From: a phage
Direction: 5' to 3' (one strand)
Sequence record: PZ452596.1
Length of the DNA: 64,000 bases
Position 1 is the first letter of the stretch. Every line of letters starts with the position of its first letter. Position numbers and translations under genes: made by a program. Below the pieces are notes generated by a model, which was not told where the DNA came from, searched no databases, and saw only the letters and a list, made by a program, of their open reading frames with translations. This document shows, one piece after another, positions 339-13,173 of the stretch.

Positions 339-919
339 TATTCACCACAGAATTCGTTGATATTTTCCCAGTTTAACTTATTTAAGTTTTTCTTAGGAAC
401 ATTAAACACTTCAATACCTGCATTTCGCAGAATATCATCCCAGCCAGGTTTATTTTTATCGTATGTTTCACAATAAACTAGCTTTTTAATACCAGATTGA
501 GCTATCGCTTTTGCGCAATCCGGACAAGGAGAAAGTGTTACATACATAGTAGCACCTTCAATAGAAGAACCATTTCGTGCAGCAAACAAAATTGCATTTA
601 GTTCAGCATGAATTTCATTTTTAGATGACCATTCCGAGTGAGCACTACGATGTTCTTTCGCCAAGACAAAACGATCAGTTGAACCAAATGATACGCATTC
701 AGGCTTATGGCCTTGAATGATAGTATGTTTAGGCTTATTCAACAACCATCCTTGCTCAGCAGCATAATCACAACAGTTCACACCCCCTGCGGGTGAACCA
801 TTATACCCAGTAGAAATAATACGTCCATTCTTTTCAATTACTGCTCCTACCTTCCAGGAGCAACATTTTGATTCTTGTGATACTAAATATGCAATTTGAA
901 GTACTGTACTCGCTTTCAT
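338..919 (-). CDS. cd: dCMP deaminase
   Basis: 193 aa; zinc-deaminase motifs (HAELNAI, SPCPDCAKAI); matches T4 Cd by recall. Confidence 0.93.
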   Translation of the reverse strand: MKASTVLQIAYLVSQESKCCSWKVGAVIEKNGRIISTGYNGSPAGGVNCCDYAAEQGWLLNKPKHTIIQGHKPECVSFGSTDRFVLAKEHRSAHSEWSSKNEIHAELNAILFAARNGSSIEGATMYVTLSPCPDCAKAIAQSGIKKLVYCETYDKNKPGWDDILRNAGIEVFNVPKKNLNKLNWENINEFCGE

Positions 920-1254
920 TTCATAATCACCAGATAAGCAGATTTAGCAGTTTCAACACGATAAATTTCGTGACGAAGTTTAGTTATACTTTTAATAACA
1001 GAACTAATTATATTCTGCCCATCTTTAAAGCGGTTTTTCTTATCAATAAAAACTGCGCCAACCATCTTTTTGTGAAGCTCAACTGGATACTTCGTCACAA
1101 TAATAGCATCATACACAGAAGGATGAATACTATTCACCAGAGTATCATTCATTAAAGTTATTCTAATGAACTGTGCTGTTTCAGAATCAAGCGCTCTATG
1201 ATCGCCAGTATCATTTTCAAGACAATTATCAATTATATCAGTTAAATTCATCAT
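916..1254 (-). CDS. hypothetical protein (cd-pseT cluster)
   Basis: 112-aa ORF, stop/start overlap with neighbours. Confidence 0.5.
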   Translation of the reverse strand: MMNLTDIIDNCLENDTGDHRALDSETAQFIRITLMNDTLVNSIHPSVYDAIIVTKYPVELHKKMVGAVFIDKKNRFKDGQNIISSVIKSITKLRHEIYRVETAKSAYLVIMK

Positions 1255-1490
1255 AGTACGCCATACACCCTTTGTGCTTCAACTAATCCATCAAAATCCA
1301 GTTTAAGATGCGATATTTGATCGCCATCACCTGGATTCACAATTACTAATACTGAACGAGGAGTTTCGGTAATAACACGAACCGATGTTTCAGGAAATCG
1401 TTCAGAAACCTTATTTACTAATTCCTGTGCAAATAGTTTAACTTTTTCTTGGAATTCTTTAACAGTAATTGGTTTTTCACTTAGTAGCAT
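1251..1490 (-). CDS. hypothetical protein (cd-pseT cluster)
   Basis: 79-aa ORF, overlapping stop/start. Confidence 0.5.
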   Translation of the reverse strand: MLLSEKPITVKEFQEKVKLFAQELVNKVSERFPETSVRVITETPRSVLVIVNPGDGDQISHLKLDFDGLVEAQRVYGVL

Positions 1491-2011
1491 GTTGATCCCA
1501 GCTCCTTACTTTCAACGTTTTTAACTAATTTGACAGAAACTAATTCAGCATCTTGGGTAATCATTACCGGACCTTCTTCATACTCTTCAAGATATTCTAG
1601 AGCTTTCTTTTTAGCTTCTTCCTTCGTATCAGTTTGAGCATAGATATAGAACATACAACCAGTAATACCTACTACTTTCCACTTAATTTCTTTATCAGTT
1701 TTAATTTCAAATTTACTTACAGAATCATCTTTTTGAACTTCTTCGAAAAAAGAATATTCTAACATATAAGCAATTGAAAATAACGGGCTAACTTTATAGG
1801 ATTCACCCATTACATCAACAGCTTTATACCAACAATCATCAATTTCGCGTTTAATGCTAATAACATTTTTCGCAGGATCTATTTTTACTTTAAATGAATT
1901 TTCCCCAATAAACTGGGCAATTCGTTTATTAGCCCCGCAAGTTTCATTAAAAATATCTTTATATCCAGCTTTAAAGCGATAAACCTTATCTTCTTCAAAC
2001 CATTCGCTCAT
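1481..2011 (-). CDS. hypothetical protein (cd-pseT cluster)
   Basis: 176-aa ORF preceded by early-promoter-like element. Confidence 0.55.
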   Translation of the reverse strand: MSEWFEEDKVYRFKAGYKDIFNETCGANKRIAQFIGENSFKVKIDPAKNVISIKREIDDCWYKAVDVMGESYKVSPLFSIAYMLEYSFFEEVQKDDSVSKFEIKTDKEIKWKVVGITGCMFYIYAQTDTKEEAKKKALEYLEEYEEGPVMITQDAELVSVKLVKNVESKELGSTCY

Positions 2012-2034
2012 TTCAATTTCCTCATTTGTTTTGG

Positions 2035-2075
2035 TAGAGCTATAATATCACAACTCTACCGTAAAGTAAACCATT
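2035..2075 (-). promoter_or_regulatory. early (sigma-70 type) promoter candidate
   Basis: minus strand GTTTAC -17- ATATTAT; flanked by inverted repeat GGTAGAG/CTCTACC. Confidence 0.4.
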
Positions 2076-2349
2076 AAATCGCTTTGAATTCCGCAGTTTG
2101 AGATTCAAAACGAATGTCGCCTTTGATAACTAGCTCAGCATCAAGACCAAATACGACAATGATATGCGCGGAACCTGGATACAACGTGATGGCAACAGAA
2201 TCCACCTGGTCTGGAAGCAAAGTATTCAATACATGAGTCACTTGAGCGTGGATTCGAAGCTCAGCTGCATTATCAAGTTTTTCAAACATATTATTAGCGA
2301 TAATTTGGCTAAACACTACTTCTACGATTTTAGAGTAAGTCGGAAACAT
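2074..2349 (-). CDS. hypothetical protein (cd-pseT cluster)
   Basis: 91-aa ORF. Confidence 0.5.
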   Translation of the reverse strand: MFPTYSKIVEVVFSQIIANNMFEKLDNAAELRIHAQVTHVLNTLLPDQVDSVAITLYPGSAHIIVVFGLDAELVIKGDIRFESQTAEFKAI

Positions 2350-2413
2350 ATTTACCTCACATAATTTTCTTCAAGCCAATTAATAATATCCCAAGTTTCA
2401 TGGTGCAAAGCCA

Positions 2414-3614
<1,201 letters not shown>

Positions 3615-10716: not shown

Positions 10717-11577
10717 TTATACCGCCATTTTTCCTTTCAAGACACCGTGGGACTGATAATCTTTGAGAACGAAATCTTTAGGCCTGAGTTTAAGAATGTA
10801 TTCCAATTGTTCTTTAGTAGAAAGATAGCGGAATTTATAAGGCAATCCGCCTATTACCAGTTCACAAAGCTCTTTAGGTTCACGACGTAAAATTTCTTTA
10901 CATTGTTCTACGTGATTCATATAGATATGAGTATTACCGCCAGAAAATATCAAATCTCCAGGAATAAGATTACACATCTTAGCTACAATATGAACTAACG
11001 CAGCATATGATGCAATATTAAATGGAAGGCCGAGAAAAACATCTACTGATCGTTGATACCACTGCAAATCTAAATAGCCATTACGCACATTAAACTGATA
11101 GAACACATGACAAGGCGGTAATGCCATATATTTAAGTTCAGCTGGATTCCACGCAGAAACAATTTGACGCCTATCATTTGGCAGTTTTTTAATACGATCA
11201 ACAACTTCTATAATTTGGTCTACACCGCCAAAATCACGCCACTGTTTTCCATAAATTGGACCAAGTTCACCGCTATGGTATCCTAAATCTTTTGCTTGAT
11301 TTTCGTAATTTTCATCCCAGACTGTTTTGCCTTGAATTAATGAATCATGTTGAATTAATCGTAAATCATTGACATTTGTGCTTCCTGATAAAAACCAAAG
11401 CAGCTCAGCAATGCAAGCTTTCCAGGCGAGCTTCTTAGTTGTTACCGCAGGAAAACCTTTAGTTAAATCCCAGCGCAATTTAGTACCGAACAAAGCAATT
11501 GTTCCTGTGCCTGTTCGGTCATCGGTTTCATAGCCATTTTCAAAAATGTCTTTAATTAAATCTTGGTATTGTTTCAT
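10717..11577 (-). CDS. td: thymidylate synthase
   Basis: 286 aa, ThyA active-site region ALPPCH; uninterrupted (no td intron or I-TevI). Confidence 0.95.
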   Translation of the reverse strand: MKQYQDLIKDIFENGYETDDRTGTGTIALFGTKLRWDLTKGFPAVTTKKLAWKACIAELLWFLSGSTNVNDLRLIQHDSLIQGKTVWDENYENQAKDLGYHSGELGPIYGKQWRDFGGVDQIIEVVDRIKKLPNDRRQIVSAWNPAELKYMALPPCHVFYQFNVRNGYLDLQWYQRSVDVFLGLPFNIASYAALVHIVAKMCNLIPGDLIFSGGNTHIYMNHVEQCKEILRREPKELCELVIGGLPYKFRYLSTKEQLEYILKLRPKDFVLKDYQSHGVLKGKMAV

Positions 11578-11622
11578 TTAGTACCTTATATAAATTATAA
11601 TACATTTTATGGAGCTAAATAA

Positions 11623-11982
11623 TCAATACGGTTTAGCATCAAATTTTCTTTCGATTTCAGGAGTGAAATATAATTCTTTACCGCGTTTAGAAAAGCGACC
11701 AATAATATGATAATTATTCTCATCAAACGTAATATTGCCAATATCCATGGCTTTCAACCAAATATCGATATTTCTATCCAGTTTTATATCAAAATTCCAA
11801 TACGGAGAACTATTACCGAAAATACTGCAAGCGGATTCAGTGAAACAACTACTATAAATCTTGTCTTTAGGAACTACTAATTGATAGACGCCTTTAATAA
11901 ACTGAGGACCCTGCCATTTTGGTTGTTTCGCGTCTTTTTCTAATAGAATAGGGTAATAATTAAAGTTCATATTTTCCGCCAC
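11623..11982 (-). CDS. hypothetical protein inserted between frd and td
   Basis: 119-aa ORF (MAENMNFNYYPILLEKD...) with its own spacing; no motif recognised. Confidence 0.5.
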   Translation of the reverse strand: MAENMNFNYYPILLEKDAKQPKWQGPQFIKGVYQLVVPKDKIYSSCFTESACSIFGNSSPYWNFDIKLDRNIDIWLKAMDIGNITFDENNYHIIGRFSKRGKELYFTPEIERKFDAKPY

Positions 11983-11990
11983 GCGTTATT

Positions 11991-12813
<823 letters not shown>

Positions 12814-12829
<16 letters not shown>

Positions 12830-13173
12830 TGAAAGGGGCCAGAAGCAAATCCGCTATCTTTAATCATTTTAACTAAAGTTACCATTCCTCTGTTAACTGC
12901 TTGTGAGATTTCATCAAAAACTTCATCACTATCACCATAAAGATCGCTAAAAAGTTCTAACACGTTCTTCTGAACTTTTAATTTACAGCCAACAAATTCG
13001 CCTACAGTAAATTCGTTTCCGCCAACTCCAGCGTAAAACGTAATTACACCAGTTAATGGTCTTTCACTAGAACATAGGTCGTGTGATAAATTAATATAAG
13101 CCGTCCCGGGTGCAGTTTTAAGTTGGCAACGAATACTTACTCGAGCAATTCCAGCTACACGAATGTCAGACAT
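12814..13173 (-). CDS. hypothetical protein (frd-32 cluster)
   Basis: 119-aa ORF. Confidence 0.5.

Follow-up and report, generated by a model that had tools for sequence, protein, structure and literature searches.

A conserved small gene family between frd and td of T4-like phages that appears to be gained and lost as a single-gene cassette

The open reading frame (ORF) that separates frd from td in the DNA analysed here is an already known gene, annotated as a member of a hypothetical protein family (PHROG 1928 / RB32ORF229c). The DNA, a stretch of 64,000 nucleotides referred to as the window, corresponds to phage RB27, since an 801-bp query across the frd-td site matched the RB27 record (KM607000/NC_025448) at 100%. 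On the best explanation overall, the ORF is a genuine member of this family, which has its home in the frd-td interval, and the gene behaves as a cassette; in addition we tentatively propose that its product would be a non-enzymatic binder within the Frd/Td module.

An earlier note on this DNA had placed the end of frd at 11991 and the start of td at 11577, with a 119-aa ORF filling the gap. This arrangement was confirmed: the gap of 413 bp between the frd stop codon TGA (11993-11991, minus strand) and the td start contains a single long ORF on the same strand as both genes (11623..11982, 119 aa when counted from a GTG codon). As to the length of the product the earlier note needs a correction, because the likely start codon, judged from the sequence context, is the ATG at 11970, yielding a protein of 115 aa (MNFNYYPILL...), and not the GTG at 11982. 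The ATG is preferred since the motif GGCGGA is located five bases upstream, since the RB27 record (RB27_228, YP_009102433.1, hypothetical protein) uses the same start, and since the GTG region is missing in relatives. In phage NHEP36 and in a metagenomic contig the GTG-containing leader is absent and the frd stop codon overlaps the ATG of the ORF. The coordinates of all features are given in Table 1.

Table 1. Features at the frd-td junction of phage RB27 (positions in the window).
Feature	Position	Strand	Basis
CDS of the 115-aa protein, stop codon included (RB27_228; RB32ORF229c family; PHROG 1928)	11623..11970	-	annotation, PHROG, dN/dS, AlphaFold (AF2) model
Extension up to GTG (119-aa version); probably 5′ leader with Shine-Dalgarno-like GGCGGA at 11980-11975	11971..11982	-	stretch absent in NHEP36 and in metagenomic contig L011
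Left 9-bp direct repeat copy TAAATGAAA; spans the frd stop and the vestigial mini-ORF ATG AAA TAA	11989..11997	-	note in the RB51 record
Right 9-bp direct repeat copy TAAATGAAA; spans the td start codon	11572..11580	-	
Spacer of 45 nt, ORF stop to td start	11578..11622	-	
frd, dihydrofolate reductase, upstream neighbour in the operon	11991..12572	-	annotated CDS
td, thymidylate synthase, intron-less in RB27, downstream neighbour	10717..11577	-	annotation

The ORF is located 20 nt from the frd stop codon and 45 nt from the td ATG, and approximately 30 nt of the latter spacer are missing in F2 and NHEP36. The spacer contains the hexamer TATAAT, yet the promoter scan remained at chance level there and thus does not point to an internal td promoter. 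Likewise, promoter-like and terminator-like sites across the locus occurred at or below the shuffle expectation, and the short plus-strand ORFs inside RB27_228 are without support. We also observed a mini-ORF of three codons, ATG AAA TAA, at 11986..11994 on the minus strand. This mini-ORF overlaps with the stop codon of frd and resembles a remnant copy of the td start, ATG AAA CAA. Further upstream, between frd.1 and frd, the window harbors two more ORFs that T4 does not contain, RB27_231 and RB27_230 (12572..13173, minus strand). The former encodes 119 aa and matches the Pfam family DUF7247 (E 1e-29), the latter encodes 81 aa without a family, and the pair is also present in RB51, in AugustSocin and in metagenomic contigs.

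Judged from codon comparisons, the ORF is a genuine protein-coding gene under strong purifying selection. When substitutions were counted by the Nei-Gojobori procedure on codon alignments, the ORFs of RB27 and F2 differed by 34 synonymous and 10 non-synonymous changes (dS 0.92, dN 0.037, ratio 0.04), those of RB27 and RB51 by 16 and 2, and those of RB27 and AugustSocin by 14 and 0, respectively. Across Tequatrovirus pairs the dN/dS ratio of the ORF ranged from 0.02 to 0.07, as compared with 0.10-0.20 for frd; the ratio of td was comparable or higher. The absence of any conservation signal had been named beforehand as an argument against the gene; conservation is in fact evident both from these ratios and from homologues in 589 phage records. 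Moreover, the GC content at third codon positions (0.276) equals that of the flanking genes (0.25-0.27), so that composition gives no indication of a foreign origin.

The view that the ORF is non-functional, being either residual spacer DNA that is open by chance or an element with a regulatory or RNA role instead of a protein, could draw on the fact that no function is known and that T4 manages without the gene. Its probability is nevertheless negligible. The non-coding reading is already refuted by the substitution pattern in the comparisons with F2 and AugustSocin; in addition, protein homologues down to 28% identity keep common invariant residues, the structural model described below is confident, and the promoter and terminator scans gave no signal above chance. 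An RNA element was rejected, as Rfam returned only sub-threshold matches to eukaryotic families, i.e. noise.

A tblastn search identified the 589 records with a homologue, 363 of them at an amino-acid identity of at least 90% and 266 at at least 99%, whereas 226 fell below 60%. Carriers of the ORF between frd and td comprise T2, T6, RB3, RB5, RB6, RB7, RB9, RB14 and RB51, and about 64% of approximately 565 matched T-even-like records carry it, a set that probably includes some Mosigviruses. The exact RB27 protein sequence is encoded on 341 contigs, always under the name 'hypothetical protein', and is identical in many T2 and RB14 records. In RB14 and RB51 the ORF is named RB32ORF229c, and the RB51 record remarks that it is 'flanked by 9 bp repeat'. 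Consequently, the novelty that had been attributed to this genome does not hold: the same ORF is present and annotated in RB27, T2, T6, RB14, RB51 and hundreds more, and thus at this very position in reference T-even genomes, a finding which the earlier note itself had set against its proposal. The comparison of the junction with T4, T2, T6 and the RB series, as suggested there, showed the ORF in T2, T6 and the RB phages and its absence in T4. The statement that the frd stop and the td start overlap in T4 was likewise correct, since in NC_000866 frd occupies 145109..145690 and td starts at 145112, resulting in a 4-nt ATGA overlap with no ORF in between. The same empty ATGA junction is found in RB69, a Mosigvirus, and in most RB69-like records.

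Two records of BASEL phages, AugustSocin (MZ501052) and AdolfPortmann (MZ501046), label the ORF 'putative homing endonuclease', and one record (PQ571308, SF2-1) labels it 'putative glucose-1-phosphate adenylyltransferase'. Neither label found support in any of the family or structure searches. Literature searches for RB32ORF229c/PHROG 1928, employing locus tags, the PHROG number and frd/td/T2, retrieved nothing on the ORF.

The match to PHROG 1928, a family of unknown function, has an E-value of 9.5e-36 and aligns residues 8-115 of the 119-aa GTG-start version with positions 2-125 of the 126 in the profile; orf2-type and distant orf1-type members match this family as well. Among the 226 records with homologues below 60% identity, synteny was inspected in eight lineages, for which the gene context came from annotated records of phages and from two Logan contigs. 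In all of them a homologue directly follows frd, namely in Kanagawavirus ZX14, Mosugukvirus PM2, Jiaodavirus KP17, Gelderlandvirus Melville, Marfavirus VAC36, Winklervirus Kc304 and the two metagenomic contigs of T4-like phages, with copies that share 63-66% identity with the RB27 protein. The frd stop codon and the start codon of the homologue usually overlap. With the exception of KP17, all inspected lineages contain a second ORF of 113-125 aa before td, which is distantly paralogous to the first (BLAST E-values as low as 3e-14; hhalign probability 99.3%, E 3e-20). An alignment of 26 sequences revealed six residues invariant across both paralogue types (Q16, W19, G27, G91, K95 and G97 in RB27 numbering) and the near-invariant residues L9, Y29, R92 and F93.

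Across the inspected lineages the first ORF is 28-63% identical to the RB27 protein, as compared with 43-52% for Frd and 74-77% for Td. The divergence of the first ORF is thus of the same order as that of Frd, which fits a long residence at the frd-td locus. Taken together, at least eight other lineages have homologues in the same place, mostly as two genes in tandem, and gene order thus shows that the frd-td interval is the old home of the family and not a fresh insertion site. The earlier view of an accessory insert therefore stands only in part: the gene is extra relative to T4 and forms an indel-polymorphic cassette, but it sits in the long-standing home of its family.

An exhaustive HMMER scan of 1.84 billion representative proteins gave 17 matches, 16 of which are real family clusters, all with a length of 99-116 aa. 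The remaining match, an 838-aa TPR protein, is spurious. The scan revealed neither cellular homologues nor domain fusions, and no further paralogue is present in the 64-kb window. In two of the distant loci we observed a third small ORF of 68-69 aa between the second paralogue and td (VAC36, 2148..2354 of locus L009; metagenomic contig L011, 4670..4879), which belongs to PHROG 9550 (function unknown). In VAC36 this ORF is labelled 'flagellar biosynthesis protein', although only PHROG 9550 matched, and a nearby ORF of 31 aa in the same region bears the label 'DNA-directed RNA polymerase'.

The earlier statement that the protein has no recognisable motif was borne out. Searches with the single protein against Pfam, NCBIfam, PADLOC and PDB sequences gave no match, nor did the 26-sequence alignment against Pfam and PDB sequences. 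The alignment contains no catalytic motif and no invariant His, Asp, Glu, Cys or Ser. The AF2 model comprises eight strands and one helix and is predicted with a pLDDT of 90.9 and a pTM of 0.84. It has no significant structural neighbour in the PDB, and its weak matches are enriched in nucleic-acid binders with an OB-fold. In the model, Gln16 and Trp19 are located in the loop after strand 1, Gly27 and Tyr29 on strand 2, and the motif Gly91-Arg92-Phe93-x-Lys95-x-Gly97 in the C-terminal hairpin. The family proteins are mildly basic (pI approximately 8-9) and contain about 17% aromatic residues.

The T4 junction equals the RB27 junction minus everything between the two copies of TAAATGAAA. On the basis of such comparisons the gene behaves as a gain and loss cassette at a short gene-junction repeat, TAAATGAA(A). 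As to the direction of the difference from T4, the outgroups and the arrangement in F2 and OLB35, where frd runs into the ORF as in distant genera, would favour a loss, whereas the ATG AAA TAA of RB27, resembling a duplicated td start, would favour an insertion into an empty site. We did not accept a target-site duplication as proof of insertion, because TAAATGAAA is a common T4 stop/start junction: it occurs in 8 copies in the window with 4.1 expected, a number reached by 9 of 100 shuffles. In F2 (994..1611 of locus L013) and OLB35 (894..1511 of locus L017) a difference of 2 nt in an A-run removes the frd stop of the T4/RB27 type. The Frd proteins of both phages are consequently 12 codons longer (...VYKNEIATGGKYEF), and frd overlaps the ORF by 11 nt, like the frd of more distant genera.

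A documented gain is provided by NHEP36, an RB69-like phage, which certainly acquired the ORF laterally, as judged from sequence identity along the locus. As far as the frd stop codon, NHEP36 shares 98-100% identity with RB69, and approximately 40 nt into td it becomes RB69-like again. Through most of the ORF it is 100% identical to F2 and OLB35, whereas the frd of these phages is only about 60% identical to that of NHEP36. The left joint lies within the microhomology ATGAA (5-7 nt). Correspondingly, RB27 and NHEP36 share 94% protein identity in the ORF, as compared with 58% in Frd and 82% in Td, with dS values of 0.70 for the ORF, 2.8 for frd and 1.9 for td. The region 1017..2824 of the NHEP36 locus (L014) can be described as a three-part mosaic of an RB69-like frd, an F2/OLB35-like ORF and an RB69-like td with breakpoints at the gene boundaries. 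Only four records cover at least 80% of the NHEP36 query, and NHEP29 is identical across it.

Given its presence or absence at one precise site, the 9-bp direct repeats in its flanks, the label in the AugustSocin and AdolfPortmann records and the lateral gain in NHEP36, the ORF might be regarded as a mobile element, that is, as a free-standing homing-endonuclease gene or its remnant with the 9-bp repeat as target-site duplication. We consider this very improbable. Apart from scattered single noise matches in Pfam, none of 26 members matched GIY-YIG, HNH, LAGLIDADG, His-Cys box, PD-(D/E)xK, EDxHD or any other nuclease family at E-values up to 1; no acidic or histidine residue is invariant, and the predicted, mostly beta-stranded fold matches no nuclease. 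Moreover, the flanks in NHEP36 were not co-converted and the left joint is a short microhomology, the 9-mer is ordinary T4 gene-junction sequence, and the deep syntenic homologues speak against recent mobility as the origin. The homing-endonuclease reading is thus largely rejected for want of a nuclease motif and of co-conversion in this one gain.

A genuine homing element is located nearby, since the T4 td intron inserts downstream of the frd/td junction, with the I-TevI cleavage site at a distance of approximately 550 bp. The td gene of RB27 contains neither the intron nor I-TevI. While frd and td exon 1 of RB27 and T4 are about 96% identical, td identity is 96.5% over the exon 1 equivalent and 86.9% from the intron insertion point onwards. 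The drop coincides exactly with the insertion point and thus marks the homing site as a boundary that is mosaic or due to recombination. In raw record counts, presence of the ORF is negatively associated with the T4-type td intron. Approximately 363 records contain the ORF, 205 the intron and 91 both; about 272 thus have the ORF without the intron, 114 have the intron without the ORF, and about 88 have neither of them. These are rough counts from chimeric queries, and the resulting odds ratio of about 0.26 is uncorrected for phylogeny, with probably some Mosigviruses in the denominator. Intron homing is accompanied by co-conversion of the flanks. Conceivably, when I-TevI homing starts from a donor without the ORF, for example T4, co-conversion of the flank could remove the ORF from the recipient. 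Melville contains both ORFs as well as the td intron.

How the pieces may fit together is outlined in the following. Phages of the RB27/T2/T6 type retain a single remaining copy of a small family restricted to T4-like phages; most relatives carry two tandem paralogues, which overlap with frd, with each other and with td at their start and stop codons. Owing to this overlap, the family proteins would be made from the same early/middle message as Frd and Td. Filled and empty sites interconvert via recombination at TAAATGAA(A), with T4 and RB69 representing the empty site, and the cassette can pass laterally between diverged phages. The product is envisaged as a small, mostly beta-stranded binding protein and not an enzyme, in which the invariant aromatic, basic and glycine residues may form one surface that binds either a ligand with a phosphate group (nucleotide or nucleic acid) or a partner protein. 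Its role would then be that of a dispensable auxiliary factor in the phage module for deoxynucleotide synthesis (Frd/Td) and not that of a stand-alone defence inhibitor.

At low confidence, we thus consider it possible that the protein is a non-enzymatic binder accessory to deoxynucleotide synthesis, with a ligand or with a partner such as Frd or Td. The ORF is co-oriented with frd and td and in most relatives overlaps with both in its codons. Its fixed position and the pair of paralogues kept in many genera, on hosts of many genera, favour this reading. Dispensability is indicated by the genomes themselves, as T4 and RB69 lack the ORF despite the high identity of frd and td exon 1 between RB27 and T4.

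The same locus can be read as host-interaction or anti-defence cargo, which the earlier note had proposed. Here, a small phage-only protein would neutralise a host factor, for instance a nucleotide-depleting or signalling component of a defence system, or serve as a nucleotide sponge, and the gene would be kept only where hosts carry the targeted factor. Several observations point in this direction. The ORF can be dispensed with, and very close relatives differ in its presence (T2/T6 versus T4, NHEP36 versus RB69); it was gained laterally as a cassette, no cellular homologues turned up among the representative proteins, and the small product combines the lack of a known fold neighbour with invariant aromatic and basic residues. 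Furthermore, of the small early T4 proteins that have been characterised, most bind proteins of the host. However, the protein resembles no solved anti-defence protein in the PDB and no PADLOC model, although the latter is a weak test, as PADLOC models defence proteins. The fixed position and the retained paralogue pair in at least eight lineages and many host genera look like those of a quasi-core gene and not of a sporadic one. Constraint is stronger than on Frd, without a hypervariable surface or an arms-race signature within Tequatrovirus, and the literature searches gave no experimental link. The anti-defence claim as such is therefore unsupported. Polymorphism among close relatives, lateral gain and the phage-only distribution nonetheless favour a host-factor or defence-inhibitor role, so that it is about as doubtful as the accessory-factor reading, to which we give preference.

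Bolder, and in our estimation improbable, is the idea that the family, with one copy in RB27, T2 and T6 and two paralogues in most other T4-like phages of Enterobacterales, represents an undescribed fold acting as a nucleotide- or nucleic-acid-binding module, either as a bridge or regulator of dihydrofolate reductase and thymidylate synthase (DHFR-TS) or as a sponge or inhibitor that protects the nucleotide supply against host defence. By analogy, a bridge could couple Frd and Td non-covalently and so be the phage equivalent of what the junction is in DHFR-TS enzymes of the bifunctional type. If this were true, its absence from the best-studied phages T4 and RB69 would explain why the family went unstudied.

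The finding as such adds little, since the gene is annotated in RB27, T2, T6 and the RB series and the repeat was noted in GenBank years ago. Its remaining value lies in a strongly constrained phage-only family that has a confident predicted structure without a known structural neighbour. This family is wedged inside a textbook enzyme operon, yet is missing from the reference phages T4 and RB69 and appears to have been overlooked on that account. In addition, T-even phages offer with this ORF a clean natural case in which one gene is gained and lost at a gene-junction microrepeat.

With regard to known systems, PHROG 1928/RB32ORF229c, as found in T2, T6, RB14, RB32, RB51 and RB3-9 and in T4-like phages of Klebsiella, Enterobacter, Salmonella and others, is the same family as RB27_228, with the frd-td position and the 9-bp flanking repeat in common and nothing that differs. 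The seg and mob homing-endonuclease cassettes of T-even phages are alike in that a small ORF is present or absent between conserved genes in nearly identical phages, and the site of RB27_228 is close to where a true homing element, the I-TevI-bearing td intron, is inserted in T4. Unlike these cassettes, RB27_228 lacks a nuclease domain and catalytic residues, the one documented gain proceeded without co-conversion of the flanks, and homologues are fixed at the same site across genera. T4-type phages also shuffle small ORFs in a modular fashion via short conserved boundary motifs, as described for PeSL cassettes (Arbiol et al. 2010, PMC2839356; Comeau et al. 2014, PMC4122927). What the two have in common is that one small gene is gained or lost, that the breakpoints coincide exactly with gene boundaries and that short repeated sequence mediates the event. 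However, the repeat in RB27 is an 8-9 bp stop/start junction, TAAATGAA(A), whereas PeSL comprises a promoter and a stem-loop within 50-70 bp, and a PeSL cassette was rejected since neither element exceeded chance here. With respect to the protein, the predicted order of strands, one helix and a C-terminal hairpin is reminiscent of OB-fold and small beta-barrel domains (SSB, RPA, S1, HIN, RuvA domain I). The possible likeness extends to the conserved aromatic and basic residues of RB27_228, which lie in the loop after strand 1, on strand 2 and in the C-terminal hairpin, and to the OB proteins that dominate its weak structural matches.
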